From Bacteroidaceae bacterium (lineage in GTDB: Bacteria; Bacteroidota; Bacteroidia; Bacteroidales; Bacteroidaceae), in NCBI GenBank assembly GCA_017535725.1, contig JAFXTO010000002.1, forward strand, positions 21,752-85,751: a stretch of DNA of 64,000 bases, given 5' to 3'. Positions 274 to 23,456 of this stretch are shown here, one piece after another (the stretch's first letter is position 1; each line of letters starts with the position of its first letter). Both the position numbers and the translations under genes were made by a program. Under the pieces are notes generated by a model. That model had not been told where the DNA came from and ran no database searches. It saw only the letters and a list, made by a program, of their open reading frames with translations.

Positions 274-3200
274 ATGCAAAATACCTCTGAAAGCCTGACA
301 AGTACCCTCTTCCGGAAAGGTGTACTACTGAAACTACAACTGCAAGACGGCACAGACCTGCAAGGACAGGTCGTGGACGTCAACCCGGAAGGCATCCTGC
401 TACGTGACGACGAAGGAAACCAAACCATACTCACCTCCGACCTGCTGACCCACGCCTTGTACCTCTACAGCGGCTTCCCCACGCAAGAGGCAGAAGTGGA
501 AGTGCCGGTAACGGTGGCCGGTAACGGTTATATCCGCAGCTATAATGGTAAGATAGGATTCACCGACAATCAATTTGTCATCCAACCAGATTCCCTCCTC
601 GACGCCACCCTCCGTCAAGACGCCCAGGCCTTTCCTGCCAGTATTGTAGACCGTGAGGTACTGGTTGTGGTAGAAGAAGGTGCCGTGAAGAAGGCGTACT
701 TGCTGAGTGTGGGCGCCCTCGATGCCGTACTCGACAAGATTGCCGAGCTGGCAGCCATGCGCAAATACTCACTGGCTCGCCGCTTCTGTGAACTCTTGTC
801 GAAGCAGTTCCCCGAAGATTCTGACATCGCCAACTTCCTCCAGAAACTGCAGGACGCCACGAACTCGGGCAAGAAGGTGGACTTCTATCAGCCCATACAA
901 AGTGCAGAGGAACGCCAGCAGGCACAGGACAACGAAGAACTCCTGCCCATGGGACGCATCTTCGAAATGAACAACTATAAAAATGGATACATCATCGACG
1001 TGAGAAGCCACAAGAAGCTATTCTTCCACCGAGAACAGCTCTTGGGCGAACTGGAACGAAAGTCCACGCAGGAACTAATCGGACAGCCCGTGGTTTATTC
1101 CATCACACGAGTCAACGACAAGTTGCAAGCCCGTAGCATCATGGCTCCCATGCAGGTGGACGATGCCTTCCAACTGGCTGAAGTCAAGTACCGACAAAAG
1201 GACATGACCCTGACCGCCTGCGACATCCTTCGAATCATCCTTCAGCAATATGAGGATGACTATATTGCTCGGACTTACAGCCAATGGAAAGCCAAACGTG
1301 AGTTCCTGCTTTGGTCTATAGAAGCACTACCCGACTACCAAGGACAACCGGTAAGCCTACGGCGTTCCATAGAGGTGCCCGGAACAAGCACCAAGGACGT
1401 GAATCTGGAGCGCAAAACCGACCACACCCAGATGGAAATGGGGTTCGCCCCACCCGAATGCCCCAAAATAACCTTCACGTCCGAAGAACCCGAAGAACTG
1501 ATAGCCATTGAGCCCGAACCTGACGGCGAACTACCCGAAGCACCGCAGGAAGAAAGCGAAGAAGCTGACAAGACTATTGACGAGACACCCTCCGAAACAG
1601 AATTGCAACCCGCCTGGGCCGAAGTTCGGAAGGAGCCTGAAGAGGTCTTTGAGATGCCCACAGAAGAGGAGATTGCTGCCAGCGAGGGTGCCGAATCCGT
1701 GGTACAACCCAACGCCAGGCTCACCTATCATTACGGCGATGGGATTTTATACGACCGCCAAGGGGAGCAGTACAGCTTCACCCTCGATGACATCATCGAC
1801 GACACGTTGTTTGAAGAGGTGCGCAACAAGAACAACAATTCCGATGATTACGTGCGCGAGCGCGAAGTCATCTGCCAGCTCTACGAATCTGGAGGACGCA
1901 GGGCACGCAACATCTGCCGACCACTGACGGTACACGAATTGCTGCGTATGGCGCTGGACGCCTACAACACCGAAGACCTCGACTCGCGAGATCTGGAATA
2001 TATCAACGGGCTCATAGGCAACGTGCTCGATTATATCCCTAACAACATGGCTGCTAACCGAATGTACGATGTCGTTAGGATGCGAAGGGATACCGACAGC
2101 GAAACCTGCTACAAGGCGCCAGCAGGAGTGAAACCCTTCGGAACCATCTCCACGATTAATTGCGAACAGAAGCCTCAGCTGAAGATTAGCGACCCTCACT
2201 TCCGAAGACCCATACCTTTCCAGATTTCCGAAATCATCGACCGAGGCTACGACCACCAATGCCACGGCGATGAACTCATGTACTCCATCTATACCAATGA
2301 ACAAGGAGAGCCCATAGCACGATTCGTACATCGTGCAAAATCCGAAAGCGAGCTCTTCGCCTTAGCAGAGGACTGGGCAGGCAAAGGAGAGGTGGTGAAG
2401 GCATGGGCCATCATGATGAATTTGCTCGACCTCAACCCTGACAACGAGCGGGCCAAGCTGTTGGCTGCTGACTACGAGAACCATGCCGATGAACAAGGAG
2501 CGCCCTTCGTAGGTGAAGAGCTGAAACAGGGACGCCAATTCAATGACCTCCTGGCCCAGGCACGATTTTGTGCCGAACGGGGAGAACTGAATAAGGCACT
2601 CGAACTCTACGCACAGGAACTTCAAGACCCCAGGGAACCCGATAACCGAGCCTACTGCATCCGCGAGAGCATACAAATCTACAGCAAACTTTACCACGAC
2701 GACCCCACCGATACGGCTCTCCTCGCCGACTACCGCCGCTTTGGCGATATGTACATCAACTCGGAAAACGGTTTCGCCAACCAGACCAAGAAAGTACTGG
2801 AGAACATCCGGGTGGTAATCATCTACCACCAGGACATGGAAGAACCAGACAACCTGATAAGGGCACTCCGACGACTACTTCCATTGTTGCAGAACCCCAC
2901 AACATGGCCGCGGTTAAACGGAGACCCGCAGAGCATCATCGCCGCGACCCGAGCGGAACTGGCCTGGTCCCTCCTACGTCAGGGCAACAACCAGGAGGCA
3001 GAGGACATGACCCGTCTCAGCGAACGCTCCTTCGACAACGAGAAAGCGCGAATGTGTCGCGCGGTCATCGAAGAGCGAAAGGTGGGCACGGAAAAGAACA
3101 TTCGATGGTCACGGTCGTTCAGGCCTTACAACGTCTACGCACTCGACACCTGCGACTGTCGTGTCTCGGTACAACAGTCTCGGGAAAAGAAAGGCCTCAT

Positions 3201-5550
3201 CTACCACCGCTTCAAAATGCTATGCCAACTGCTGGACATGCAGAACGAGTCCCTTTCACAGGGCACACGCATGGACGAATCTTCCCGTACCCTCCTCATG
3301 AAGCTGCTGGCAGGGTATGTCTCCACCCTGCTGTGTGACGACTGGCAGCAATACGCCCGAGACAAGTTCCTACATCAGTACCTGCCCGGAGACTGTCAGC
3401 TGGTACTTCAGCTCAGCCGTTGTGTCTCCAAAGGACTCTCGTGGAACGGATGGATGGACCTCCGACTGATGTCCATGCTCTGCGGCGAGGCAGCCTACGC
3501 CATCTGCAGCATCCTCTTTAGCCTCAACCGCGACCAAGCTATCGATCTGTTGCGCAATTCCCACATCGAAATCAGCTACGAGAACAAGGCCGTTACACCG
3601 CAGTTCTACGCCGGCCGCTTCAACGAATGGCGTGGGGAGAACTTCCGAGACCTCCTCATCCAGGTGCTGCGCAAGTCCGAGGAACTGGTGGAACGACCCC
3701 GTTTGAGCGACTGCGCTGACTTCTTCCGCCAACTGACCTTCGAAGCGTGGATGTCTCAGGATGACAGCGACCTCATCACCGCCCTGCGACAACAGTTGCC
3801 CATACTCATCGCAGCCTTCCTCAGTTCCCATACGGAAAATGCACGCACTATCATCAACGCCTACCAGTCTTTGACCGGATTCCTTACGGACAAGATCGAA
3901 GCCATCAGCCAGCGTCCTACTGTCTTCTCGGCCGTCGTCCTGGACCCGCTGCTTAAGAAGATTCTCTCCGAGGCACAACTTCTCTACGACCGCCTGCAAT
4001 TCGAGGCTCCCCTGCCCAAGGCTACCGTCATCTCCACCTCACTCGTAGGAACCGATGGTTCCTTCCTCACCGAAGTTCAGGTGTGCAACGCCTGTCGCAT
4101 GGCCACACCCATGAAAGACCTGCATCTCATCGTAGACCACATCAGCGGCGGAGTGCAAACGGAGAAACCAATCATCTACTCCGATATCAGCAAGGTAGAT
4201 GGCAAAGTTTATGGCGAGGAATATGTCATCTATACCATTCGGGCACGACTTACTGGCGATTGGCAGCAGCAGCGCTCAGGACAGTTGCAGCTCCGACTGC
4301 TTTTCACCAACGAGGAGGGCACCCACCTCGAAGCACCCTTCGAACTCCCCTTCCCCATACAGGAGTGGACAGAGCAGACACCCAAGTTGCCTGAAATCTA
4401 CGCAGCTGGTCCCAAGGTAGAAGACGAGAAAATGTTCTACGGACGTGATGACGATGTGGCTGCTGTCGTCTCTGCCGTCGGAGCCACCAAGAACAAGCCC
4501 CACTACTTCATCTTTGGACAGAAGCGCAGTGGTAAGTCCTCCCTGCTCTACCACATCCAGAAGAAACTCCTCGCCAACTACCACTTCATCAGTGTAGAGA
4601 TGGCTTTCGCGGACTTCACCATCCACCGCGAGGAGCACATCTACCGCCACATCTTCTCTGCCGTACAGACAACCCTTGACTGGGACTACGACATATCCGT
4701 GGAGGACTGGACCGACGCCGACGAAACTTCCACCGATTCCATGACCTTCAGCCAGTTCGTCAACAATCTTAAGCACATCAACAAGACCATTGAGGCATCG
4801 GAACAATGGCATGACTACCGCCTTGTCTTCTTCATCGACGAGTTCACCACCTCCTACGAGTGGTTCGTCAGAGGGAAAATTCCCAAGGAATTCTTCGGAC
4901 GTTGGAAGAGTCTACAGGACAAAGGACTCTTCAGTGCCGTACTCATCGGGCAGGATGTTTTCCGCTACATCGTTCGCGACCTCGTACACAACGACTTCGG
5001 CAGCCTGCTGAATTTGGAACTCACCTACCTAAGCCGCGAAGCTGCCATGCGTCTGGTCACTGACCCTGTCGTAGAAGCTAGCGGCAACGCTGACATTTAC
5101 GTGGGAAATGCCGTACAACGCATCCTCTATTACTCGGCCAATAGCGCCTACTACACCCAATGGATATGCAGTGAACTCATCAAATATGTCAACGCCAACC
5201 GCCTGCAACTCATCACGGAAGCCGACGTCGAGGAATGCGTACACCGCATGATGAACGACGATCCCAACGAATTGAAAGTGAAGTTCTCACCTTTGGAATA
5301 CTCTGGCCGAGACCCCAAGGAGTCATGGCAATTCCCGCGAGAGGAAACCGTAGCCGTTCTCCGACAGGTTGCTCTGGCAGAAATCAGCGACCCCGTGCGA
5401 GGCTGTCCACGGTGGAAGATACACTCCGAGAACGGACGTACCGACGAGTTCCTGGCTGACCTCGTGGAACGACACGTGCTCACCGTCGACAACGACAACT
5501 ACAAACTTATCGTCAAACTTTATCTTTTATATCATGGACTTAGCAAATAA
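274..5550 (+). CDS. Giant (1758 aa) multidomain P-loop NTPase with N-terminal Sm-like and repeated cold-shock/OB-like modules, an acidic linker, a helical/TPR-like middle and a C-terminal STAND/AAA-like ATPase
   Basis: Single uninterrupted 5.3-kb ORF. Walker A is GQKRSGKS at 4516-4539, preceded by FYGRDDD. Walker B-like RLVFFIDEF lies near 4819-4845. The N-terminus LQDGTDLQGQVVDVNPEGILL resembles the Hfq/Sm pattern. Four G-x-I..G-[FY]-I..FFH-type CSD-like segments are visible. Confidence 0.85.
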   Translation: MQNTSESLTSTLFRKGVLLKLQLQDGTDLQGQVVDVNPEGILLRDDEGNQTILTSDLLTHALYLYSGFPTQEAEVEVPVTVAGNGYIRSYNGKIGFTDNQFVIQPDSLLDATLRQDAQAFPASIVDREVLVVVEEGAVKKAYLLSVGALDAVLDKIAELAAMRKYSLARRFCELLSKQFPEDSDIANFLQKLQDATNSGKKVDFYQPIQSAEERQQAQDNEELLPMGRIFEMNNYKNGYIIDVRSHKKLFFHREQLLGELERKSTQELIGQPVVYSITRVNDKLQARSIMAPMQVDDAFQLAEVKYRQKDMTLTACDILRIILQQYEDDYIARTYSQWKAKREFLLWSIEALPDYQGQPVSLRRSIEVPGTSTKDVNLERKTDHTQMEMGFAPPECPKITFTSEEPEELIAIEPEPDGELPEAPQEESEEADKTIDETPSETELQPAWAEVRKEPEEVFEMPTEEEIAASEGAESVVQPNARLTYHYGDGILYDRQGEQYSFTLDDIIDDTLFEEVRNKNNNSDDYVREREVICQLYESGGRRARNICRPLTVHELLRMALDAYNTEDLDSRDLEYINGLIGNVLDYIPNNMAANRMYDVVRMRRDTDSETCYKAPAGVKPFGTISTINCEQKPQLKISDPHFRRPIPFQISEIIDRGYDHQCHGDELMYSIYTNEQGEPIARFVHRAKSESELFALAEDWAGKGEVVKAWAIMMNLLDLNPDNERAKLLAADYENHADEQGAPFVGEELKQGRQFNDLLAQARFCAERGELNKALELYAQELQDPREPDNRAYCIRESIQIYSKLYHDDPTDTALLADYRRFGDMYINSENGFANQTKKVLENIRVVIIYHQDMEEPDNLIRALRRLLPLLQNPTTWPRLNGDPQSIIAATRAELAWSLLRQGNNQEAEDMTRLSERSFDNEKARMCRAVIEERKVGTEKNIRWSRSFRPYNVYALDTCDCRVSVQQSREKKGLIYHRFKMLCQLLDMQNESLSQGTRMDESSRTLLMKLLAGYVSTLLCDDWQQYARDKFLHQYLPGDCQLVLQLSRCVSKGLSWNGWMDLRLMSMLCGEAAYAICSILFSLNRDQAIDLLRNSHIEISYENKAVTPQFYAGRFNEWRGENFRDLLIQVLRKSEELVERPRLSDCADFFRQLTFEAWMSQDDSDLITALRQQLPILIAAFLSSHTENARTIINAYQSLTGFLTDKIEAISQRPTVFSAVVLDPLLKKILSEAQLLYDRLQFEAPLPKATVISTSLVGTDGSFLTEVQVCNACRMATPMKDLHLIVDHISGGVQTEKPIIYSDISKVDGKVYGEEYVIYTIRARLTGDWQQQRSGQLQLRLLFTNEEGTHLEAPFELPFPIQEWTEQTPKLPEIYAAGPKVEDEKMFYGRDDDVAAVVSAVGATKNKPHYFIFGQKRSGKSSLLYHIQKKLLANYHFISVEMAFADFTIHREEHIYRHIFSAVQTTLDWDYDISVEDWTDADETSTDSMTFSQFVNNLKHINKTIEASEQWHDYRLVFFIDEFTTSYEWFVRGKIPKEFFGRWKSLQDKGLFSAVLIGQDVFRYIVRDLVHNDFGSLLNLELTYLSREAAMRLVTDPVVEASGNADIYVGNAVQRILYYSANSAYYTQWICSELIKYVNANRLQLITEADVEECVHRMMNDDPNELKVKFSPLEYSGRDPKESWQFPREETVAVLRQVALAEISDPVRGCPRWKIHSENGRTDEFLADLVERHVLTVDNDNYKLIVKLYLLYHGLSK

Positions 5551-6094
5551 AAAAAATATCATTTGGGCGCGTATTCGCACCCTCGGACCGCAGTCCATCG
5601 TACTGCCCCCCTCCACGGACGACCATCAGGTAGCCCTCGCCCTCATCAGCGAGCTGGAAACCGAGATGCAAGAGGAACATTTCGTTGCCGTCACCATTCC
5701 CTGTGAGAAGTACACCACCATTCTCGACTTTTGGAAAGCGCTGACCATGGAGGTGTGGAAAGCACTGTGCCCTGTCATGCAGCCTCAGCTACGCTCCACT
5801 ATGGAAAACAAAGTCCTCCGCATGGCCCAGAGCCAGCGCACCATCGACCTCTTCAATGGACTGCTGCATTTCCTGAAACATGTGAGGGAGAAACAAGGCT
5901 TGAAGGTGGTGCTTATCCTCGAGAAGTTCGCCGCGCTCGTGGAGCTACAGGACGAGTCCGATGCCATGAAAATACGCCAGTTGACAGACGTGATGGCGCT
6001 ACTGACCCTCTCGGAGAAACCCCTGGTGGAACTCGCCGACAAATACAAGAACGAATACTTCTGCAACCAGTTTGTGGCCTTGCAGGCATCCTGA
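5534..6094 (+). CDS. Small (186 aa) partner protein; NTPase-like layout without a Walker A lysine
   Basis: ATG at 5534 overlaps the stop of the giant gene by 17 nt. VVLILEKFAAL resembles a Walker B strand with the acidic residues lost. GPQSIVLPPSTDD sits where a P-loop would be. The upstream part of tracked ORF 5369.. lies inside the previous gene and was discarded. Confidence 0.65.
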   Translation: MDLANKKNIIWARIRTLGPQSIVLPPSTDDHQVALALISELETEMQEEHFVAVTIPCEKYTTILDFWKALTMEVWKALCPVMQPQLRSTMENKVLRMAQSQRTIDLFNGLLHFLKHVREKQGLKVVLILEKFAALVELQDESDAMKIRQLTDVMALLTLSEKPLVELADKYKNEYFCNQFVALQAS

Positions 6095-6106: not shown

Positions 6107-7846
6107 ATGGAATACCCTTTTTCATTCGTGGGAAAGTCCTCCCTCGGAACGGACTTCGTGGGACGTGACAGCCAGTCCAAACTCATCACCGAACGCACCT
6201 TAGAGGGTAGCATGACCTGCATCGTGGGACTTCCACGAATGGGCAAGACGTCCCTCATAAACCACCTTTTCTTCGAATCTGGGCGTCCTGAGTGGTGGGC
6301 ACAGCACCACCTCCTGCCTCTCTACGTCAGCATAGACACTTGCGCCACAGCCGATGAGTTTTGGGGCAGTGTCGCCTCCCAGCTTTACCAAGCCGTCGAT
6401 GACTGGGTAGAACAGCAGCAGATACCCGTAGAGAACAAGGACCTACGGAAATTTTACGAAGAACTGCAGAAAGCCGACCATCCAGCTGCCGATGGCGCCT
6501 TCATCTTTAACAAGATGACAAACAGCCTTACCTCCTTGAAGAATCTGCAGTTGCAGGTCATCTTCATCTTGGACGAGCTCGACAGCCTGGGCCGGTACCA
6601 CTACGGCTACGACCACTTCCGTAAGATTCGCGCCCTTGCTAACTACGGACCGCTCATCACCTGCTCACGTAGACAGCCCCAAGCCATCGAGAAGAAGGCT
6701 TTTGACACCGACTATTTCTCCAACATGTCCGAGAAAGTCTTCATCGGGACGTTCACTCCCGACGAGGTTACGACCTACTGGCAACACTTCCGTCCGGCTT
6801 TCAGCCAGCTCAGTGGCCCCGAGTTCCGCGAGTACCGCAAACTCGTAGCACGCTACGCTGGCAACCATCCACACCTGATGAACCTGATGAACTACCACGC
6901 TCTGCATTCGGGGAACCTCACAGAATGGCAGCGCGCTATGGGAACAAGCCAACGCTACCGGCAGGAATGGCAGTTTCGTGCATCGCTGGTCGAAGCCTTC
7001 CGCGAACAGATGCGATACATAGAGGAACAGGAACTAAATAAAACGGCCATCGTAGCTGTGCTCGGAGGAGAACGCAAGGAGGACTTTGCCGACCAAATCA
7101 CCACCCTCAAGCAGTACACCTTCATCCGTGAAGTCACCAACGAGGAGAAACGAGCCCTCTTCACCTATGACCTGGGGCTGCAGACGCCGGACTGCAGATA
7201 CCGCTACGTTTGCCTCTCTGACTTCTTCAGCCATTTCATGCGTGACAACTACCTCCCTACCTACAAGGACTCAGAATTGCACATCGTCACCGAACTGAAG
7301 CTTCGGGAACTCGTTCGGGCATTCCTTCGACTGCAATTCGGCGATGATGCACTAAAGCCCATTGGCGATGATGAGTACGCCCACGAGCACTATGAGGAAC
7401 ACTGGGAAAAACCTTATCGCCTCTTCTGCGAACGCAAGGCACTCTTGTATTTCGACGAAGACAACGAGACTGCATGGAGCGAAATCAAGCACCGACGCTG
7501 GCAACTGACGCAGACCGACTGCAAGCCACCCTCAGAGCGACCACCCATCGACTTCCTTACAGGTCTCAACCTTCACCAGCTCAAGACATTCTTCCTCAAA
7601 CCCCTGTGGTTCACCTTCTTCGGCAAAGTGCTCGATGCCGAACAATGGGGAGAAAGCACCTATAAAGGCAATCGCGAGAGATGGATGCATACCTATTTCG
7701 ACCCTTTCCACACAATCCGTAACCGCGACAGCCACCGTAACCTTGTATTCATTACCGAGGAGGCCATCGAAAAAGCCCACAGCGCTTGCCGCAAGATTTG
7801 CCAGGACATTGACCGCTGGATGGCACAACAAGCAGATTCATTATAG
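6107..7846 (+). CDS. P-loop NTPase (STAND-like) with a C-terminal HEPN-type domain (predicted RNase)
   Basis: Walker A is GLPRMGKTS at 6227-6253. Walker B is VIFILDELD. AGNHPHL is a GxP-like motif. The C-terminal motif R-N-R-D-S-H (Rx4H) is at 7718-7735, within FHTIRNRDSHRN. The gene starts 12 nt after the previous stop. Confidence 0.85.
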   Translation: MEYPFSFVGKSSLGTDFVGRDSQSKLITERTLEGSMTCIVGLPRMGKTSLINHLFFESGRPEWWAQHHLLPLYVSIDTCATADEFWGSVASQLYQAVDDWVEQQQIPVENKDLRKFYEELQKADHPAADGAFIFNKMTNSLTSLKNLQLQVIFILDELDSLGRYHYGYDHFRKIRALANYGPLITCSRRQPQAIEKKAFDTDYFSNMSEKVFIGTFTPDEVTTYWQHFRPAFSQLSGPEFREYRKLVARYAGNHPHLMNLMNYHALHSGNLTEWQRAMGTSQRYRQEWQFRASLVEAFREQMRYIEEQELNKTAIVAVLGGERKEDFADQITTLKQYTFIREVTNEEKRALFTYDLGLQTPDCRYRYVCLSDFFSHFMRDNYLPTYKDSELHIVTELKLRELVRAFLRLQFGDDALKPIGDDEYAHEHYEEHWEKPYRLFCERKALLYFDEDNETAWSEIKHRRWQLTQTDCKPPSERPPIDFLTGLNLHQLKTFFLKPLWFTFFGKVLDAEQWGESTYKGNRERWMHTYFDPFHTIRNRDSHRNLVFITEEAIEKAHSACRKICQDIDRWMAQQADSL

Positions 7847-7878: not shown

Positions 7879-9153
7879 ATGACACACCGATACACTGCCT
7901 ACTTCTGTGGATGCCTGACGGCCAACAACGAAGTCAGCACCAGAAGCCTCATCGACGCAGGATGGAAGCAAGAAGAGAATAAAGAGATGGCTACCTATCA
8001 GGCCAAACACATTTATTACGACGAGTTCCTGAATTTCTGCGCTGCAAAGACACCGCAAGAAGGCTGTGTGGCGTGGAGGTATGAGATGAAAGAGGATGAG
8101 CGCGTTGGAACCTGCAAGAACCTACTCGATCAAGTTGTCATTTATCTCGTGCCTGCCTTGCATTGTTACATACTGCCTTTTGGTATAGTCATCTTCGCCA
8201 TTGAAGTCACCGCCGTGGATGAAGTCATGGACAACTTCATATCCATAGCCGTCCAACTGCGCCGTCTGGCAATCCCCCAAGGGGTGGCAGACGTCTTGCG
8301 CAAGTTAAAGAACAAAGTAACAGGAAATGAGCAGGTGGAACTGTCCGAGGCACTGGACTATGGCTACAAACTGAAGGTCTTTCAGATCATAGACTCTGAT
8401 GCGGCTTGGAACAGCGAGACGAATGAGGAGCGGAAACAGGTGCTGTTCCGATTAGGAGTCATACAAAGCAACAAATCCACCATATCCACGCGGTTCCAGG
8501 ACGGTTACGAGGAGGGCATCCTGAATCAACACAGCATCTCCGTTTTCAATAATTGGGATGCCTTAGCCCTGCTCGACTCCTTCACAATCCGTTCTATGCA
8601 ATGCGAGGATTGGCAGATGAAGGAGTGGCAAAACGCCTTCTTCCGCATGATTTACATCCAGAGCCTCTTCCAGAAATTCTATCTCCAAAGCCTGAACCAG
8701 CGTTTCCGTGCGATGGTGGAGCATCGAAGTAAGGACAAGTTAGCGAATTTACTAGCAGAGTTCGAACACTACGAACGCATCTGCCAATTCAACAAGGTGT
8801 CCTACACCTTCCTGCCACTCCTCATCGACAACGCCATCGACACCTCGTTGGAAATCAAAGAGGAGCGCGATTTGCTTTCTACCTACATCAAAGGAGAGGA
8901 GAAACGCCATGAGTCTGACAACGAACGAAGAATCAATCGTCTGTTGCTCGCCATTTCCTGTCTGACCATGTTCTCCGCCATCTGGGATCTCTCGAGTCTC
9001 ATGAACGAAATCCTACCCTACAATTGTTTCTTCTGCAGCACTCGCAGAGGGTATGCCATAATATCATCTGGTCTGCTTATTATCGTGCTGGTTCTCATTG
9101 CCTTCATTTATATAATGGGAAAAAGCAGGAACCGGAAACGGGACCAACAATAG
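7879..9153 (+). CDS. CorA-like membrane protein with a soluble N-terminal domain, two C-terminal TM helices and a basic tail
   Basis: NERRINRLLLAISCLTMFSAIWDLSSLMNEILPY aligns in spacing with the CorA N..LT..(TM1)..GMN..P segment, but has LMN instead of GMN. A second TM (GYAIISSGLLIIVLVLIAFIYIM) and the tail KSRNRKRDQQ follow. An alternative start is ATG at 7987. Confidence 0.7.
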   Translation: MTHRYTAYFCGCLTANNEVSTRSLIDAGWKQEENKEMATYQAKHIYYDEFLNFCAAKTPQEGCVAWRYEMKEDERVGTCKNLLDQVVIYLVPALHCYILPFGIVIFAIEVTAVDEVMDNFISIAVQLRRLAIPQGVADVLRKLKNKVTGNEQVELSEALDYGYKLKVFQIIDSDAAWNSETNEERKQVLFRLGVIQSNKSTISTRFQDGYEEGILNQHSISVFNNWDALALLDSFTIRSMQCEDWQMKEWQNAFFRMIYIQSLFQKFYLQSLNQRFRAMVEHRSKDKLANLLAEFEHYERICQFNKVSYTFLPLLIDNAIDTSLEIKEERDLLSTYIKGEEKRHESDNERRINRLLLAISCLTMFSAIWDLSSLMNEILPYNCFFCSTRRGYAIISSGLLIIVLVLIAFIYIMGKSRNRKRDQQ

Positions 9154-9179
9154 CGGTTCACCCGAACAAAAAAGTGTTC

Positions 9180-9211
9180 GCTCCAAAGTGGGCATGAATC
9201 CACTTTGGAGC
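9180..9211. terminator. Bidirectional hairpin terminator between the convergent four-gene operon and mdh
   Basis: Perfect 12-bp stem: gctccaaagtgg (9180-9191) pairs with ccactttggagc (9200-9211), with an 8-nt loop and A/T-rich flanks. Confidence 0.65.
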
Positions 9212-9237
9212 GAGCAACAGGGAAGAAATAAAAATTC

Positions 9238-13793: not shown

Positions 13794-13801
13794 TAACTTT
13801 G
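13794..13801 (+). promoter_or_regulatory. -7 promoter element (TAACTTTG)
   Basis: TAnnTTTG match 32 nt upstream of the ATG at 13833. Confidence 0.4.
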
Positions 13802-13832
13802 TGCCCAAAATCAATTAAACATCAAACTGATT

Positions 13833-14933
13833 ATGCTGATTAAGTTCGCTGTAACCAACTTCCGAGGGTTTGCCAAACGTATTGAATGGGACTTGTCGAA
13901 GCCCAGTAATTATGCCTTTCGTTCGGAGGTCATCAAGGATGGTATTATCAAAAATGGAATCATTTACGGTCCAAATGGTGTTGGCAAGTCAAACTTTGGC
14001 CTTGCCATCTTTGACATCGTTTATCATTTAACCATCAAATGGAAGAAAGGTGATTATCTGAGCAACTACACCTATGCCGGTAAGACGGATATGCCTGTTT
14101 CGTTTGAATACGCATTTATGTTAGGCAGCGACCTCGTAGAATACAACTATTCGAAGAATCATGCTGGAGTGCTTCTTTCGGAAACGCTTCGTGTAAACAA
14201 TCATCAAGTATTCAAGCAGGACAAAGAAACTTTCGAGATTGACGAAACGCAGTTCAAAGTTGATGCGACGATTCAGAATAATTTCAAGCAGAGCGTAAAC
14301 GGTGCTTCTGTTATTGCCTTTTTGACTGCGTCGTTCCCACTGCCGCAAGAGCACTATATTGTCAAACTGTTGCAATTCGTCAACTCCATGCTTTGGTTTA
14401 AATGTCTGGAGAGCCGTGAGTTTATTGGTTTAGAGACAAGCAACATAGAATTGGATGCCTATATTATCCAGAATAATCTCGTTGGAAACTTCAAGAGTTT
14501 CCTAAAGCAAGTGAGTGAGCAAGAGTTTAATTTTGTCAAGCCAAACGAAGGGGACAAACTACTATTCTGCGAAATCGACGGGAACAAAATGCCGTTTATC
14601 AGTATTATTTCAACAGGAACCAAGTCTCTGCAATTACTCTATGTCTGGATGCAAGAGATGAAAAATGCCTCGTTCGTCTTCATTGACGAGTTTGACGCGT
14701 TCTATCATTTCAAGCTGGCCTTTGAGGTTTGCATGCAACTTTTCAAGTTGGATTGTCAGATATTCATGTCATCACACAACACCTATCTGATGACAAACGA
14801 CCTGTTGCGACCCGACTGTAACTTCATCATCGGTGACAACAAAATCAAGCCCTTGAACGACTGCACAGAGAAAGAACTCCGCTTCGGTCATAATATTGAG
14901 AAACTTTTCCGCGGTGACGCATTCCGAGTATGA
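13833..14933 (+). CDS. AAA/ABC-type ATPase (AAA_21/RloA/AbiLi-like)
   Basis: Walker A is GPNGVGKSN near the N-terminus. Walker B/D-loop is FVFIDEFDAF. H-loop is SSHN. 366 aa. Confidence 0.85.
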   Translation: MLIKFAVTNFRGFAKRIEWDLSKPSNYAFRSEVIKDGIIKNGIIYGPNGVGKSNFGLAIFDIVYHLTIKWKKGDYLSNYTYAGKTDMPVSFEYAFMLGSDLVEYNYSKNHAGVLLSETLRVNNHQVFKQDKETFEIDETQFKVDATIQNNFKQSVNGASVIAFLTASFPLPQEHYIVKLLQFVNSMLWFKCLESREFIGLETSNIELDAYIIQNNLVGNFKSFLKQVSEQEFNFVKPNEGDKLLFCEIDGNKMPFISIISTGTKSLQLLYVWMQEMKNASFVFIDEFDAFYHFKLAFEVCMQLFKLDCQIFMSSHNTYLMTNDLLRPDCNFIIGDNKIKPLNDCTEKELRFGHNIEKLFRGDAFRV

Positions 14934-15694
14934 TTTTGTTCGTATTTGAAGGAGAAAAAGAGAGCCCGACCTTTTCCACACGTTGGAGCGTTTATATTTC
15001 CCAAGGGATAACAACCGCATAGTCTGTTCTTTTGGGAATAACCTCTATTACTTGTACAAGGAACTGGAGAAATACGGTGAAGATGGTGACATTGTTGCTA
15101 TCATGAAAGAACTACTGGCAAGGAAGGAGGACAATCCATTAGCCAACATAAAGCGTTCTTCTGACTTCTCCGAAATATACCTTTTCTTCGACTATGACTT
15201 CCATCATAAACAGCTGTCTGTTGAAGAAATCAATCTCCAAGTCAGCGAGATGTTATCCCTTTTTTGCGATGAAACAGACCGAGGCAAGCTCTACATTAAT
15301 TATCCGATGATTGAATCCATTCGATACACGAAGGAATTGCCGGATGAGAACTATCACACCTACGTAGCCACAAGAGAAGAATGCCGCCACTTCAAAGCTT
15401 TGGCAGATTCCTTTTCAGTCTATTCATCACTCGATTTCATCCTATTGAAAGAAGAGAAACCAACAAAAAAGAAATATATGTCGGTGCATGACAACTGGGA
15501 ATATCTTAAAGATCAGAACGTCAAGAAGGCAAACTTCATTTGCAACGACATCTGCGCTTATCCTACGACAAAGAGAGCAATTTCGCAAGACATCATATTT
15601 TGCCAGTCAAGTCTCAAAATATGTGGATACAGAGAAGACAGAAGTTGCTATACTAAATGCCCTTCCGATATTCCTATATGAATACTTCAAATAA
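14930..15694 (+). pseudogene. Toprim/RloB-like partner gene interrupted by two single-base homopolymer indels
   Basis: ATG at 14930 overlaps the ATPase stop (ATGA) and gives MILFVFEGEKE (Toprim Glu strand). The frame breaks in the A-run at about 14953-14961 and continues as REPDLFHTLERLYF..LFFDYDFHH (DxD). A second break at the T-run near 15598-15601 restores the first frame, giving ASQVSKYVDTEKTEVAILNALPIFLYEYFK and a stop at 15694. Confidence 0.6.
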
Positions 15695-15760
15695 AATGCA
15701 GGTGAAAAGGTACATATAACTCTTCATATTCCGCACTTATTATTACAAATATCACATCAT

Positions 15761-15879
15761 TTGTGATGGATTTGTGCAATTATCTAAGCCTAAATGCTCA
15801 AATTAGCAAGAAAAGAATGGCGATACGGGAAATCTTTGTACTTTTGCAACACTAAATACGGAATCTTTATGGCAAAGAA
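15761..15879. repeat. Direct repeat copy 1 (119 bp: promoter, 5-prime UTR and codons MAKK)
   Basis: Near-identical to 19148-19267 (one extra T and one substitution). Contains TACTTTTG at 15839-15846. Confidence 0.9.
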
Positions 15880-17539
15880 GAAGAATAAGAAGCAGAAGGG
15901 GCAGCAGTTCCTCTCACCAGAGCAGTATATTAGGCAGAAAGCGCGGACGCTGGAAATCGGCAAGTGTTATGTAGACAACGACCTCGAAAAGGCGGGCGAG
16001 GGTCACATCATCGTCAGCCGCAAGCATACTGGAGGAAGGGTGAGCATCGGTTTCTATCTCGTGGACATCTGGTGTGTCGGCGTGAAGCGCTCGTTTTATC
16101 GTCTGCGCATGGAGGACTATGAGCTCGACGAGATGATAGATTCGTACCAGCTTAATTTGCGCGAATGTAGTTACGACGAGGTCCACAACTGGATATACGG
16201 AGCCATTGCCTTCGCCGAGGAAGCTGGCATTGCTCCCGACAAAAGTTTCAACCTGACACAATACTTCCTCGAGGAGGACGATGATGATATCCCCCTCATG
16301 GAGTTCGACTTTGGCCGAAAGGGCAAGCATACGCTGGTCGCCAGCAGCAATTTAGAGGCCAGCCGCTATCTGCCTCTGCTCGAGAAGAATCTCGGCAAGG
16401 GGAACTATGATTACATCCTTCGTGTAGACGAGGATGATGATTTTGAGGAAGACGAGGATGATGATTTTGATGAAGACGAGGTCGAGGAATCCGAAGGCCC
16501 TATTTATATGCGCCAATTGGTAGATGACATAGAAATTAATGACCTCTTGGGATGTGCTGCAATCCTTGGATTGAAGATTGACACAAAAGCTTCAGAAGAA
16601 GAGATTCGCCGACAATATATAGAAGGTGTACTCTCCGACCCATACGACATACTTTGTCGTCTGCCGAATGAGGACACGGCCATGCTGGAAACAGCACAGA
16701 ATGAGCATGACAACCGTGTCTTTTATCCAGATAACTATCGAATGCCTTTGCTCTATCATTATGGCTTTGCTGATGAGGATTGGGACGAGGATGGCAATCG
16801 TGTGATCCAGATAGCCAAGGACTTTGCGGACGCCATGTCGCCTCACTTGGCAACTGCGTCGGAAGAACCTGCCAATATGGGACGTCTCATCATGGAGGCC
16901 GTCATCGACGGACTGGCTAATCTCTTCGGTGAGATACGCTTAGATGAGGCTAAACGATATATAAAGATGGTTTTTGACCATAAAGAGGACCTGAATGTGG
17001 ACAGACTCTCACAGTTGGTTATGGGACACTCCCTGCTGCTTGACTGGATGGCCGTGCCTCTTGGCCCCGCCCACCAATCGGTGTATGAACTTCCTGACGA
17101 CCAGGTGGTCTTTTTGTCCCTCTATGGATGGAATACGCCAGAGAAGCTGCGCGACAAGATAGCTCAGCGCCAAACGATTCCGAGCCGAAAGGACTACACC
17201 ATGGAGGAGATTATCCAATCATCCTCCGTACTGCCAATCATCCCGAATCCAGAAGCAAAGAACTTCCACCGGTTCCTTCAGACGACACTCGGCTATGACG
17301 AAGAAGAGGCTAAAGAAATCTCCTTCAACCTGTGGTATCGCGCCCAGCACGAAGAGGACGAGAGTTTCGAAGACGGCACCTATCAGGACTATTTCACCAA
17401 AGAGGTTCTCCGTCAGGCTCCCAAGCGCATAGGAATGAAACAAATGAACGAAGCGATTTCGGCACTGACCAACTACATGAATGCCATGCCACGCTGGATA
17501 CTGAAAGGGCATTCTCCTAATGAGGTGAACGAGTTATAA
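15869..17539 (+). CDS. Hypothetical protein (556 aa) with a basic N-terminus and an acidic D/E tract
   Basis: Long ORF. Start chosen at MAKKKNKKQKG (ATG 15869), 23 nt after a TAnnTTTG element. No recognisable catalytic motif. Confidence 0.75.
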   Translation: MAKKKNKKQKGQQFLSPEQYIRQKARTLEIGKCYVDNDLEKAGEGHIIVSRKHTGGRVSIGFYLVDIWCVGVKRSFYRLRMEDYELDEMIDSYQLNLRECSYDEVHNWIYGAIAFAEEAGIAPDKSFNLTQYFLEEDDDDIPLMEFDFGRKGKHTLVASSNLEASRYLPLLEKNLGKGNYDYILRVDEDDDFEEDEDDDFDEDEVEESEGPIYMRQLVDDIEINDLLGCAAILGLKIDTKASEEEIRRQYIEGVLSDPYDILCRLPNEDTAMLETAQNEHDNRVFYPDNYRMPLLYHYGFADEDWDEDGNRVIQIAKDFADAMSPHLATASEEPANMGRLIMEAVIDGLANLFGEIRLDEAKRYIKMVFDHKEDLNVDRLSQLVMGHSLLLDWMAVPLGPAHQSVYELPDDQVVFLSLYGWNTPEKLRDKIAQRQTIPSRKDYTMEEIIQSSSVLPIIPNPEAKNFHRFLQTTLGYDEEEAKEISFNLWYRAQHEEDESFEDGTYQDYFTKEVLRQAPKRIGMKQMNEAISALTNYMNAMPRWILKGHSPNEVNEL

Positions 17540-17622
17540 GTAGCGAATTGATAGGAAATAAAAGTATTGTACGAGAGTGTTATAATTAAAGAAAGCGAAT
17601 AGACACAGATAAGGACGGATTT

Positions 17623-17964
17623 TTACGCAGCCTCGTAGATGTAGTTCTTAAACAGGCTGGCCTTGCTTTGCTCAGAGGACGCGACATCAATGCTTTGCAG
17701 CGGCGAGACGGCTATCAGGTTGTTGGAGTAGCGGGTGAGGTAGTTGATGGCCTCCACGCTGTTGACGCTGCCATCGGTGGGCATCGAGGTGATTACCTGC
17801 GACAGGAACTCATACTCTTTCGGCGGGAAGAGGCCGCGCACGGCATCCAACTTCTGCTGGGAATAGCGCACGTCCACCTTGTCGCCGTCAACGAATATCA
17901 GTCCGAGGCTTACACGCTCGGAAATCTCGGGGCGGATGACCGCATAGATGATGCTGTATTTCAT
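17623..17964 (-). CDS. DUF3037-like small protein (113 aa)
   Basis: MKYSIIYAVIRPEISERVSLGLIFVDG.. matches my memory of DUF3037. The ATG lies 1 nt after the stop of the upstream kinase gene. Confidence 0.6.
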   Translation of the reverse strand: MKYSIIYAVIRPEISERVSLGLIFVDGDKVDVRYSQQKLDAVRGLFPPKEYEFLSQVITSMPTDGSVNSVEAINYLTRYSNNLIAVSPLQSIDVASSEQSKASLFKNYIYEAA

Positions 17965-17965
17965 A

Positions 17966-18763
17966 TTATCTGATGTTTTCGGTGAGACATTCCATATAGT
18001 TATCCCATACGGCGGCTGTCCATCTGTCGTCAAATAGTTGGTTCAACTTTTTGCTGACGGTTTCGGCAGGGACTTGCCACTCTTGCGGCATTTCGTTCGT
18101 TATCTCTGCTGCGGCGCTTCTGCTCTGCTGCAGACACTCGGCATAGTCGGCCTTCAGGCGGTTAGCTATGGCGAGGACGGTCTGCTTGTTCGTGCTCTGA
18201 AAGAGATGCCGGAAAAGGTCGGACCAGAGAATGGTGTCTGTAGATGTGAGTTGTGAGAGGGGATAGTCAAACGTGGCGGTGTTGAAGATGCATCCGTAGT
18301 CAATCGATACCAACTGCTCACGAGCCATGTCGTACATCAAGTTAGCATTGTTCGCGTTGCGGTCTTCGTTGGCCACCCAGAAGTCGAAGAGGGCAATCTT
18401 CATCAGTTGGCTCAGAGTCTCAATGGTTGCGGGAACTTTTGCGTAGGTGGAGGGGGTGATGTCAACCACACCGTCCTGCCAGCGGAAGCCTATTGACTGG
18501 GAGGAAAGAATGTGAGATTCGTTTATGCCTTCCCAATGCGAAGGCTTGATATTGACAATTGCGATTTCTGGAGTCCTCAGTTGCCATGCCGTTGCCAATT
18601 GTGCCCCGATGAGTTCACAGGCCAACTTGTAGGCTGTTGCCGAGGATCGCATGTATTTACAGACGTAGATGTTTACGTCTGAACACATCACCATCACTGG
18701 CTCTTCGCCCGTGTGGAACTGGTGCTCGATGCGCTTGGCACTGTATAAAAAAGGGATAGACAT
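17966..18763 (-). CDS. HipA-like serine/threonine kinase (short form, 265 aa)
   Basis: DFWVANEDRNANNANLMYD fits the HipA-family catalytic loop D-x-x-x-x-N..DR..N. Start chosen at MSIPFLYS (18763). Confidence 0.7.
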   Translation of the reverse strand: MSIPFLYSAKRIEHQFHTGEEPVMVMCSDVNIYVCKYMRSSATAYKLACELIGAQLATAWQLRTPEIAIVNIKPSHWEGINESHILSSQSIGFRWQDGVVDITPSTYAKVPATIETLSQLMKIALFDFWVANEDRNANNANLMYDMAREQLVSIDYGCIFNTATFDYPLSQLTSTDTILWSDLFRHLFQSTNKQTVLAIANRLKADYAECLQQSRSAAAEITNEMPQEWQVPAETVSKKLNQLFDDRWTAAVWDNYMECLTENIR

Positions 18764-19147
18764 GATTGTTGAGAATTGCAAATGTGTCGCCTGTGCTAAA
18801 ATGTGGCAGATAAATCGCCGCAAAAATAGTGATTATATCTGATATGTATTGAAGGAAAGCTTGAAAAATACTTAAAGGGAAGAGAAATACAGCAATTTTT
18901 AAGGCAAATGCTTACGTGCGGAAATACTTCTAACCATCCAAACAACGGTATTATGGCTTCGATAAGTGACAAAGCTTACCTCGTAAATGCGTTTGATATC
19001 CGAAGGAACAATTATATTGGCTCATTACATCTTGCTGGTGATTGTGAAGCTATTGAGCAATATGTCTACACTCTTTGCTGGATGCTGTTGAAAAAGTGCA
19101 TATAATTCTTCGGTTTCAATGCCTCAAAAAGTAAAATATGGCATCTA

Positions 19148-21563: not shown

Positions 21564-23456
21564 TTATTTCGGCATTTCGATGATGATACGGCAACCTTGT
21601 TGATAGTCGGCGTCGTAGATGAGGTTACCGCCGAGGCCGGTAACTTGGCGCTGGGCCAGCGGCAGTCCGAGTCCAAATCCCATGGACTCCTCGTTGGCCT
21701 GCGTGAAGGGCTGGGTGAGAATCTCGTGCCAATCCTTCTGAAGACCTGGGCCGGTATCTTCCACGATGAAGCAGACGGTGGACTCCGTCTCCATCAGGCG
21801 CAGGGTGATATGCTTGTCGTCGGAGAACTTGGCGGCGTTGTGCAGGAGCTCACCAATGGCACGATTGAGGAAGAAGTGGTTGGTCTGGATGCACACATCA
21901 TCGGACAGCAACGTCTCCAGATGGAATTCCAGGTTCGCATGGCACGTGTGCATGTACTCGATGACCTCGCGTGCAAGCTCGTTGCAGGGCAGTTTCGAGT
22001 TCCGCAGGTATTGCACCTTGTCCTCAGACTTCGGTCTGGAACTATCATAGAGCATCGTCACCCTTCGGTCCAGGCGGATGACATTGATGGCCATCGTGTC
22101 CTTGACGACCTGCAGCTCGCTGGGCGTCAGGTGGTGGCTCAGCAAGGTGTCTGTCATACCTTCGAGGATGTTCAGAGGCAAACGTATCTGTCGAAGGACG
22201 TGTTGTGAGAACCGGCGTTTTTCCTCAAACGATTTCTTGGCGGCTGCCATAGCTTGCTCCAGCTCCTCGTTTTCGACTCTGACTTGCTCCGATGTCTGCT
22301 TGACTTCCTTCATGTGTGCCACGATGGTTCGCTTCATCGCGATGAAAGCGTTCTGCAGGAGTGCCACCGCGTCCTTGCGGGGTGACAGGGGAATCACCAC
22401 ATCGTAGTTGCCGCTGGCAATCATCTGCATGTCATCCAGTAGCTGTTTGATGGGCTTGATATTCATTCGGACGACGCTGACCGTGATGAGCAGGATGAGC
22501 ATCAGGCCGACCACCACGACGATGATGGCGAGATACACCAGGTGATTATAGTCGCTCAGCACCTCATCGTCCAAGCATACCATGGCCAGACTCCATTGGG
22601 TCTCAGGCACAGGAGCATAGCAGACGTGATAGACCTCGTCGCCCCTCTTGACGTGCATGATGCCCTGTTTGCCAGCGGTCATCTCGCGTCCCAGCTTGAT
22701 GACATCCGGGTCCTGGATGGAGTCCGTGACCGAGAAGATGGTCCGACGGAACAGGAAGCTGGATTCCGGGTACACCAGATAGCGGCCATCGGTGCCCAGC
22801 AGCATGTAGTAGGCGCTGGGGAATGGATGTTCCGATGCCTCGATGATTTTCGACAAACGGCCAAAGGAGAAGTCCGTGGAGACAACACCCTGAATGCGAC
22901 CGCCTCCCGGACGCAAGGGGATGCAATAGGAAGCAATGGCATCATTGAGGCTGATGGTGCCCTGGTTGAAGTCGCTGAACGGATCCAGCCAGCTATCCTT
23001 GCCCGTACGCTTGGGTTCCTGATACCAATGCCGCTCGTAGTAGTCGTAATCCGACTCACGCGCGGTGAGGATGGTGTCACCGTCATTCACGGAATAGACC
23101 GAGAACCGAGAGCCATACTCCGGAAATACATCGGGTTCCGTACCCACCGAGCAACTGATTACGCTTTGGTTGATGGTGACGATGCGACGCGAGAGGGACT
23201 GCAGGGAGTCGGGATTGAAGTTAGCCTCCATCAGCCACACATTTGACTTGGCTGCGTTCTTGACGGCAGACATGTAGTTGACCACGCGCTGCATGGTGGT
23301 GTTCAGCGTGCTGTAGGAACGCTCCATGGTTTCCTTGTGCATGATTGCCTGCACGTGCTTGAAGAAGACGCCCAGCGAAACCATGAAGAGGGGTGCTGCC
23401 AGCAGTAAGATGGTAATACCTATCTTCCGGGCCAGACTTTTACGCGGCTTATCCAT
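21564..23456 (-). CDS. Sensor histidine kinase (Cache-like periplasmic domain, HAMP, DHp, HATPase_c)
   Basis: H-box-like FSQHVLRQIRLPLN. G-boxes DTGPGL and GFGLGLPLAQ. Two TM segments flank a roughly 270-aa extracytoplasmic domain. Confidence 0.85.
   Translation of the reverse strand: MDKPRKSLARKIGITILLLAAPLFMVSLGVFFKHVQAIMHKETMERSYSTLNTTMQRVVNYMSAVKNAAKSNVWLMEANFNPDSLQSLSRRIVTINQSVISCSVGTEPDVFPEYGSRFSVYSVNDGDTILTARESDYDYYERHWYQEPKRTGKDSWLDPFSDFNQGTISLNDAIASYCIPLRPGGGRIQGVVSTDFSFGRLSKIIEASEHPFPSAYYMLLGTDGRYLVYPESSFLFRRTIFSVTDSIQDPDVIKLGREMTAGKQGIMHVKRGDEVYHVCYAPVPETQWSLAMVCLDDEVLSDYNHLVYLAIIVVVVGLMLILLITVSVVRMNIKPIKQLLDDMQMIASGNYDVVIPLSPRKDAVALLQNAFIAMKRTIVAHMKEVKQTSEQVRVENEELEQAMAAAKKSFEEKRRFSQHVLRQIRLPLNILEGMTDTLLSHHLTPSELQVVKDTMAINVIRLDRRVTMLYDSSRPKSEDKVQYLRNSKLPCNELAREVIEYMHTCHANLEFHLETLLSDDVCIQTNHFFLNRAIGELLHNAAKFSDDKHITLRLMETESTVCFIVEDTGPGLQKDWHEILTQPFTQANEESMGFGLGLPLAQRQVTGLGGNLIYDADYQQGCRIIIEMPK

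Follow-up and report, generated by a model that had tools for sequence, protein, structure and literature searches.

What might a bacterium do with a protein that opens with an Sm/Hfq-like fold, continues with four barrels resembling cold-shock domains (CSDs) and ends in an ATPase? The question is raised by gene A, which lies at positions 274..5550 on the forward strand of the stretch of DNA analysed here (the window), 64,000 nucleotides (nt) of a Bacteroidaceae bacterium (GenBank assembly GCA_017535725.1, contig JAFXTO010000002.1, positions 21,752 to 85,751). We favour an immune or conflict function, because gene A opens a rare cassette in whose third gene an RNA-cutting HEPN domain is predicted. 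We propose that gene A is the sensor or scaffold of an NTP-dependent cassette of three genes that acts in conflict, most likely by anti-phage abortive infection, and we place the probability of this reading at roughly 0.5.

Gene A is a real gene, since its full-length homologues are conserved along the whole of its length. It starts with ATG and encodes a multidomain protein of 1758 amino acids (aa), which we propose to be a sensor or scaffold NTPase. A search of 5.8 billion proteins returned a near-identical copy and seven full-length homologues of 30-42% identity. Additional full-length homologues (32-34% identity) were reached through the loci of a partner gene described below, and one distant homologue shares 22-29% identity (locus L091; L-numbers denote loci of relatives). 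Overall, the family consists of full-length proteins of 22-42% identity from ~15 metagenomic loci. An NCBI record from the cluster of identical gene A sequences is titled 'hypothetical protein [Bacteroidaceae bacterium]', and comparison of the full-length protein with Pfam, NCBIfam and PADLOC gave only sub-threshold P-loop matches (aa 1382-1562) and a faint tetratricopeptide repeat (TPR). The open reading frame (ORF) had been reported in a preliminary description of this DNA, made from the sequence before any structural model; the 1758-aa frame was confirmed, and the peptides quoted from it were all located as expected, at aa 12-53 (LFRKG...QTIL), 83-96 (GNGYIRSYNGKIGF), 226-256 (MGRIF...HREQL), 481-494 (ARLTYHYGDGILYD), 622-629 (FGTISTIN), 1388-1394 (FYGRDDD) and 1415-1425 (GQKRSGKSSLL).

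The first 80 residues of the protein (274..513) form an Sm/Hfq-like head. In an AlphaFold2 model of aa 1-710, built from an alignment of eight sequences, the head consists of an N-terminal helix (residues 2-12) and five strands (18-23, 28-37, 40-44, 50-53 and 61-67), matching the Sm fold, in which an alpha-helix is followed by a strongly bent, five-stranded antiparallel sheet. When the same 710 residues were compared with the PDB by Foldseek, 32 of the top 50 matches were Hfq chains, with template modelling (TM) scores of 0.57-0.66. A profile of the head searched against PDB sequences gave a similar picture, with approximately 35 of 47 matches being Hfq or LSm proteins, all in the same register; the alignment to Hfq spans the Sm1 region, Hfq residues ~13-49. 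Amongst eight homologues, the Pfam family Hfq_1 matched the head in four and Hfq in one (E 1.3e-5), with DUF6897 also appearing, and all of these matches were sub-threshold. The head of the window protein likewise scored below the Pfam gathering score (Hfq_1 at E 0.052, with 14.1 of the 27 bits required). In Hfq, the Sm2 motif [YF]KH[AS][IV] makes the proximal RNA pocket. This motif is not present in the head, where the equivalent strand reads ALYLYSGFP and has no K-H; in its place stands a conserved YxY-x-G-[FY]-P, of which Y63, Y65 and P69 are invariant. The likeness to Hfq and LSm proteins is thus one of fold, an N-terminal helix with a bent five-stranded barrel, and the head differs from them in its fusion to a 1700-aa protein, its acidic character, its missing Sm2 [YF]KH and its Pfam scores. 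We also asked whether the head might be one more copy, a fifth, of the CSD-like module described next, and rejected this at hhalign E-values of 0.05-0.2.

Behind the head, the model shows four barrels of beta3-alpha-beta2 topology at approximately aa 85-145, 227-290, 481-548 and 623-687, corresponding to the five-stranded CSD/OB barrel in which strands 1-3 and strands 4-5 are separated by a connector, and the Foldseek matches agree with this topology. Mean pLDDT (predicted local distance difference test) for the model was 71 and pTM (predicted TM score) 0.31, with values of pLDDT 75-92 within the modules. Module 1 (520..873) comprises a barrel at aa 83-147, modelled at pLDDT 86-91, and a helical extension to aa 200. 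Module 2 (946..1308) has its barrel at aa 225-292 and helices to aa 345; it is the most CSD-like of the four, with GYII and LFFH motifs and a net positive charge. Module 3 (1708..2103) has its barrel at aa 479-550 and helices to aa 610, and module 4 (2131..2340, aa 620-689) bears an invariant GDELxY motif. Modules 1-3 are each trailed by a helical segment of 50-60 aa, made up of two or three helices, whilst module 4 runs directly into TPR helices. Eight of the top 50 Foldseek matches were CSDs (UNR, Bs-CspB and Bc-Csp; TM 0.69-0.75), including the best match for the whole segment, CSD1 of UNR (4qqb_X, TM 0.72); apart from these and the Hfq chains, the list held seven MscS channel chains and three Tudor-SN barrels.

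The repeat is beyond chance, and all four modules share homology. Comparison of module alignments from the eight homologues by hhalign gave E-values of 1.1e-6 (modules 1 and 2), 2.4e-5 (1 and 3), 3.6e-4 (2 and 4) and 4.6e-4 (3 and 4), with all four modules aligning in register. The resemblance of module 1 to module 3 and of module 2 to module 4 hints at an origin by duplication of a two-module unit. The number of modules is either two or four, as a short natural form of gene A (1461 aa; L008, 5078-9463, and L009, 2470-6855) is missing approximately aa 497-756 of the window protein, and with them modules 3 and 4 and the first TPRs. Similarity to known CSD families is faint at the sequence level: module 2 matched Pfam CSD (PF00313) at E 0.0044 over 56 of the 66 profile positions (9-64) and, with 17.3 bits, did not reach the 27-bit gathering score. 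Only two of the 32 module sequences matched CSD at all. In a search of the PDB with a profile of all 32 module copies, a UNR CSD ranked second, at a marginal E of 0.21.

Nucleic-acid binding by CSDs depends on two motifs, RNP1 (K/R-G-F/Y-G-F-I) and RNP2 (V-F-V-H-F). In module 2, the RNP1 and RNP2 positions are occupied by NGYII and KLFF[HF]; no such motifs are present in modules 1, 3 and 4. Module 2 is also the most conserved N-terminal segment, with G238, I240, D242, S245, H246, F250 and F251 invariant in the homologue alignment, and its net charge is positive in every homologue (+1 to +8); that of module 4 ranges from 0 to +5. We therefore cautiously suggest, from residues and charges, that the N-terminus of gene A may bind nucleic acid. 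UNR/CSDE1 is a eukaryotic multi-CSD protein in which canonical and non-canonical CSDs alternate, and a comparable blend of binding and scaffolding barrels would be plausible in gene A. The two proteins are alike in having several CSD-like barrels per chain, only some of which carry RNP-type residues. They differ in that gene A is bacterial and its barrels have helical extensions and are joined to TPRs and an NTPase, and sequence homology between them is undetectable beyond the marginal profile match.

The structure prediction, Foldseek comparison and profile searches over the N-terminus returned Sm and OB folds and not their absence, so that both the Sm/Hfq-like head and the four CSD/OB-like modules of the preliminary description are upheld by models and sub-threshold profile matches, and in the case of the modules also by their mutual homology. 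Of the claim that the modules lie in tandem, the repetition stands, whilst the helical segments after modules 1-3 mean that the array is not strictly tandem. The acidic linker, which had been placed after all four modules, in fact lies between modules 2 and 3 (1309..1707, aa 346-478). The span of 1470-1690 given for it was in nucleotide coordinates, corresponding to aa ~400-472, and the densest acidic stretch starts at aa 404. The linker has a net charge of -27 and is poorly conserved in the alignment; disorder is indicated by pLDDT <50 at aa 334-374 and 400-457.

Between the barrels and the ATPase lies a TPR array followed by a further conserved region (2341..3993, aa 690-1240). Over positions ~684-933, the family profile matched consensus TPR proteins with a best E of 5.5e-10, and Pfam TPR_7 was faintly detected at aa 759-788. 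A single-sequence search of the PDB with aa 690-1245 gave nothing useful. The region falls outside both of our structure models, and the helical character of aa 690-1240 is therefore presumed; the helical, TPR-like region of the preliminary description accordingly holds as far as its TPRs are concerned, with the helical remainder a presumption. An immunoglobulin (Ig)-like beta-sandwich follows (4015..4356, aa ~1248-1361), which was seen as strands in a second AlphaFold2 model (aa 1220-1758; pLDDT 79.5, pTM 0.72) and matched the gamma-adaptin ear and GGA GAE domains in Foldseek (TM 0.5-0.68).

The final segment (4429..5547, aa ~1386-1758) models as a nucleotide-binding domain, a helical lid and a winged helix. 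Its Walker A (GQKRSGKSS, aa 1415-1423) and Walker B (VFFIDEF, aa 1518-1524) motifs are invariant in the family and fit the patterns GxxxxGK[ST] and hhhhD[DE]. Foldseek matched the domain to RFC, Cdc6 (1fnn), RuvB and the proteasomal Rpt subunits. The Pfam families AAA_16, AAA_22, nSTAND1 and ATPase_2 all matched below threshold (AAA_16, 27.6 against 32.6 bits; nSTAND1, 22.4 against 27.1 bits), and PF01637 is a precomputed assignment in five full-length homologues. These motifs, models and matches support the view that the C-terminus of gene A is a complete STAND/Cdc6-like AAA+ NTPase. The STAND-like ATPase that had been predicted at the C-terminus was thus recovered, its P-loop region modelling as an NTPase, and so was the unusual order that had been remarked upon, with barrels and TPRs N-terminal and the NTPase and winged helix ending the protein. 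The canonical NLR/Avs order of effector, NTPase and repeat sensor in one chain is not seen, and gene A has no effector domain. Taken together, we are highly confident that the fold and domain assignments of gene A hold.

A candidate effector is provided by the third gene of the cassette. The first 17 nt of gene B (5534..6094, forward strand) are shared with the end of gene A, and gene C (6107..7846, forward strand) starts 12 nt after gene B. Gene C encodes a protein of 579 aa, predicted to combine a STAND NTPase with a Swt1-like HEPN domain at the C-terminus and hence a putative RNase. Its NTPase carries Walker A (GLPRMGKTS, aa 41-49) and Walker B (FILDELD, aa 153-159) motifs, showed weak matches to Pfam AAA_16, AAA_22, nSTAND and ATPase_2, and matched the NRC1 NB-ARC domain and 2fna in PDB profile searches. 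The NTPase domains of genes A and C are homologous (hhalign E 6.9e-9), a relationship visible with profiles only, as BLASTP of gene C against the gene A C-terminus was not significant. Gene B encodes 186 aa that align to the NTPase core of gene C with an hhalign probability of 99.1% (E 4.6e-19), with the P-loop and the DE of Walker B both replaced, consistent with an inactivated paralogue. We conclude from these comparisons that all three genes carry paralogous NTPase domains, those of A and C probably active, with intact Walker motifs, and that of B probably inactive.

The HEPN domain of gene C occupies aa ~385-579 (~195 aa). It contains the sequence RNRDSH (aa 538-543), an RNxxxH form of the HEPN motif Rx4-6H, and R538, N539, H543, E396 and W433 are invariant in 22 gene C homologues. 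A profile search of 1.84 billion representative proteins with this domain gave 73 proteins at E <= 1e-3. The R and H are also invariant in 48 of the more distant relatives, 27 of which match Pfam HEPN_Swt1 (PF18731; best E 1.7e-8), and it is on these matches and the invariant residues that the assignment is based. A direct scan with PF18731 matched one of ten gene C family members (E 0.011) and not the window protein; a homologue search with the HEPN-domain alignment found two fragments only, and a PDB profile search with the domain gave no match. Identification of gene C as a transposon TniB protein was considered and rejected, the matches being faint and precomputed only and no transposase being seen in the flanks.

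Genes A and C were found together in every locus examined (~15 distinct), with gene C downstream and the reading frames overlapping or nearly abutting. Gene B lies between them in every closer relative with a gene table that we examined. In the distant L091 (2440-9797) gene B is missing, and a gene A homologue of 1854 aa, with the same head and modules, directly overlaps a 598-aa NTPase-HEPN gene. The flanking genes differ at every locus. They often include known defence and toxin-antitoxin genes, namely TIR_2, PLDc and MazE in L010, HicA in L009, SIR2-HerA, AAA_15-RloB and WYL in L091, and TIR_2/FGE-sulfatase in L093. When 90 ORFs flanking the cassette at 15 loci were compared with PADLOC, strong matches were obtained to HerA, SIR2, AbiLi/AriA-type ATPases, WYL, DpdF, TmtA, PDC-M12A/B, PDC-S02 and PDC-M37B. 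The cassette is very sparse and patchy, forming ~20-30 clusters at 50% identity amongst the 1.84 billion representatives. It was not found in 185,579 GTDB species-representative genomes scanned with two patterns, whose narrowness may partly explain the result, nor in any of 80 pepP neighbourhoods retrieved from representatives of related species, most of them Prevotellaceae. Viral contigs scanned with the gene C family likewise contained none. The mdh/pepP region next to the cassette is rearranged in relatives and offered no clean empty insertion site. Neither Pfam nor NCBIfam recognizes the cassette, and Rfam found no family in the whole window, so no known non-coding RNA partner is apparent.

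How might such a cassette work? A trigger could be captured by the N-terminal array, that is the Sm-like head and the four CSD-like barrels, or by the TPRs that follow. Of the barrels, module 2 and possibly module 4 would have retained nucleic-acid-binding character, and the trigger would most likely be single-stranded RNA or single-stranded DNA (ssDNA) made during infection. Binding of the trigger would free the STAND/Cdc6-like NTPase of gene A to bind ATP and oligomerize. Since the three proteins carry paralogous NTPase domains, we propose that they form a hetero-oligomer, in which B may serve as a non-catalytic adaptor or brake. HEPN RNases dimerize to build a composite Rx4-6H active site, and the assembly would join the Swt1-like HEPN domains of gene C into an active RNase, with RNA cleavage and growth arrest as the expected outcome. 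A more specific version of this model, which we advance tentatively and regard as somewhat unlikely, makes gene A an NLR-like receptor that senses nucleic acid and not protein, with an Sm-type ring and the CSD array driving heterotypic STAND assembly and activation of a separate HEPN RNase. By analogy, the active sensor, inactive adaptor and active effector NTPases would then resemble the sensor and helper NLRs of plants, in a member of the Bacteroidota.

Several observations weigh against our proposal that the cassette is triggered by nucleic acid and acts in conflict. All eight homologues have a head of net acidic charge, and modules 1 and 3 range from neutral to negative and carry none of the RNP-like aromatic and basic residues, so nucleic-acid binding may be absent from most of the barrels. 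For gene C in the window, the HEPN call is transitive, made via distant relatives, and PADLOC-DB v2 recognizes none of the three proteins beyond P-loop-level matches (PDC-S60, mad8 and PDC-S01; E 1e-4 to 1e-2). The first of these points would be accounted for if the cassette and its HEPN output were as proposed, and the barrels were protein-binding or architectural beads, like SH3 or Tudor-type domains or the non-canonical CSDs of UNR, with a phage protein bound by the TPRs as in Avs. Such an arrangement would fit the restriction of recognizable RNP1/RNP2-like residues to module 2, the presence amongst the Foldseek matches of Tudor-SN and MscS beta-domains, neither of them an RNA binder, the natural variant that does without modules 3 and 4, and the sizeable TPR array adjoining the NTPase. 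It is harder to reconcile with module 2, the most conserved of the modules and net positive in all homologues, with its LFF[HF] at the RNP2 position, and with an RNase output, given that the closest catalogued single-chain proteins pair STAND-HEPN with CSD or S1 domains. We judge a protein trigger of this kind possible, if rather doubtful.

An immune role is itself open to challenge. The enrichment of defence genes in the flanks was seen with no matched background control, and housekeeping genes are the immediate neighbours of the cassette in the window (mdh, pepP and sodB) and in L001, L006 and L094 (ClpS/ClpA and acetyl-CoA hydrolase being amongst those found elsewhere). Together with the absence of the cassette from the viral contigs, and the fact that Sm/Hfq and CSD are classic RNA-chaperone folds, this could point to a machine of RNA metabolism or stress in rumen and gut Bacteroidota, in which gene A is an ATP-driven RNA chaperone or remodeller and gene C a regulated endoribonuclease, acting in RNA turnover or dormancy. 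The sparse and patchy distribution described above, with none in the genomes scanned or in the 80 loci, argues against such a housekeeping role, as do a context that changes from locus to locus, known defence genes in the flanks, and a combination of STAND and HEPN that is typical of conflict systems; we consider it improbable. More radically, the folds might be artefacts of prediction from a shallow alignment, in which case gene A would be no more than a large TPR-STAND protein whose N-terminus defies classification. The models behind the Sm and CSD assignments are indeed of moderate confidence and built on eight sequences, every Pfam match is under its gathering score, and the Foldseek E-values for aa 1-710 are just 1e-3 to 1e-2, none being <1e-3, although modest values are expected for 65-aa domains inside a 710-aa query. 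Against this stand structure prediction, profile searches of the PDB and single-sequence Pfam matches, three independent lines that agree on both folds and on where they lie, and for this reason we regard an artefact as very unlikely. Moreover, the four modules are related by sequence alone and are individually modelled at high pLDDT, and the folds had been predicted from sequence patterns before any model was made.

The conflict cassette that we propose is of a kind already known, as related combinations have been described in three sources. Anantharaman et al. (2013; PMC3710099) catalogued bacterial single-chain HEPN-STAND-CSD proteins as conflict proteins, for example in B. cereus (gi 229028907), and an Npun_F6454-type combining a Swt1-like HEPN with STAND, TPR and S1. 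At the domain level, the cassette has the same parts, with Swt1-type HEPN, STAND, TPR and OB folds of the CSD/S1 type. It differs in splitting them between three genes, two encoding active NTPases and the other an inactive one, in the four-OB array behind an Sm-like head and the position of sensor-like domains N-terminal to the NTPase in gene A, and in the position of the HEPN domain C-terminal to its own NTPase in gene C. Kaur et al. (2020; PMC7159879) described inactive STAND (iSTAND) components and S1/CSD domains in NTP-dependent conflict systems (the MoxR-vWA ternary systems). The cassette likewise appears to use an inactivated STAND-type NTPase as the non-catalytic part of a multi-gene, NTP-dependent system; gene B, in contrast, is a bare NTPase core of ~180 aa, accompanied by two active STAND paralogues and by no MoxR or vWA partner. 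In the CoCoNuT type IV restriction-like systems of Bell et al. (2024; PMC11090510), the co-occurrence of CSD and HEPN is read as RNA targeting. These too are multi-gene systems that combine CSD-like OB folds and Ig-like beta-sandwiches with NTPases and HEPN nucleases, but the cassette, whose NTPases are STAND/Cdc6-like, has none of the McrB-type GTPases, McrC or long coiled coils on which they depend.

The cassette also invites comparison with the Avs (AVAST) and other NLR-like STAND proteins, with which it shares a STAND NTPase beside a TPR array, the expectation of ligand-induced oligomerization leading to a nuclease-type effector, and an association with defence islands. The prokaryotic receptors of this class whose characterization we found in the literature consulted recognize phage proteins via C-terminal repeats. 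Avs is a single polypeptide in the order effector, NTPase and sensor, whereas the cassette has a sensor followed by an NTPase and places the effector on a separate NTPase protein. It further differs from Avs in its additional inactive NTPase paralogue and in a candidate sensor built from nucleic-acid-binding folds. The PADLOC models of Avs did not match the cassette proteins. The division over three genes with paralogous NTPases, the Sm-like head, the four-fold CSD-like array and the placing of the sensor before the NTPase were not found described in the three sources above or in PADLOC, and we found no paper describing the cassette.

If our proposal is correct, a STAND sensor made of RNA/ssDNA-binding folds in inverted order, with the sensor first and the NTPase last, would extend the repertoire of such receptors, which the splitting of three paralogous NTPase modules over sensor, adaptor and effector genes would also widen. 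The cassette would be a bacterial counterpart to paired sensor/helper NLRs, and would add both a rare bacterial multi-CSD protein and an Sm-like domain, unannotated until now, in fusion with an ATPase. Its genes are now annotated as 'hypothetical protein' or 'ATP-binding protein' in metagenome-assembled genomes (MAGs) of rumen and gut Prevotellaceae and are invisible to PADLOC; profiles made from the present alignments would allow the cassette to be catalogued and tested.

A fourth gene (7879..9153, forward strand) starts 32 nt after gene C and encodes a protein of 424 aa. A gene of 48% identity occupies the corresponding position in L093 (3202-4467), the locus most closely related to the window; the gene is missing from most other loci, and because it recurs in L093 only, we class it as accessory and rejected it as a core component. 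No relationship to it was detected for the 469-aa protein that L004 encodes in this position. Searches of the protein families gave no match, and in PADLOC just a CorA-like one at E 0.011. Two C-terminal hydrophobic stretches resemble transmembrane helices, by eye only, and the protein could be an accessory membrane effector. At two other loci, a 194-aa HD-domain protein is encoded immediately downstream, on the strand opposite to the cassette (L005, 9266-9850; L092, 11799-12383).

Hairpins that may act as terminators were seen on both sides of the cassette. A perfect 12-bp inverted repeat with a 13-nt loop (139-150/164-175) is followed by a T-rich run (region 139-190) and comes shortly after the upstream gene ends with its stop codon at 78-80; it resembles a terminator separating that gene from the cassette. 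A scan for sigma-70 promoters and terminators was not above shuffled expectation, the sigma-70 model being unsuited to Bacteroidota promoters, and the terminator scan missed the repeat because its loop is >8 nt. On the downstream side, a strong hairpin of 14 bp whose T-run is on the minus strand (9178-9213) lies between the converging 424-aa gene and mdh. This is probably the mdh terminator, and may act bidirectionally.

The host is an uncultured member of the Prevotellaceae of rumen type; further into the window, the product of pepP, an Xaa-Pro aminopeptidase, is 79% identical to proteins of Prevotellaceae MAGs. Beyond mdh, pepP and sodB, and ~5 kb from the cassette, an island of low GC content (~13800-18900; 0.41-0.50 against ~0.53 around it) encodes an AAA_21/SMC_N ATPase (13833-14933), probably amongst the AbiLi/AriA-type PADLOC matches, two ORFs that belong to no family (14983-15681 and 15794-17539) and, on the minus strand, a HipA-like kinase (17966-18823); it looks like a separate defence or toxin island. 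Finally, two adjacent dCache_1 sensor proteins are encoded on the minus strand at 21564-24945, one a histidine kinase and the other containing HAMP, and represent ordinary signalling unrelated to the cassette.

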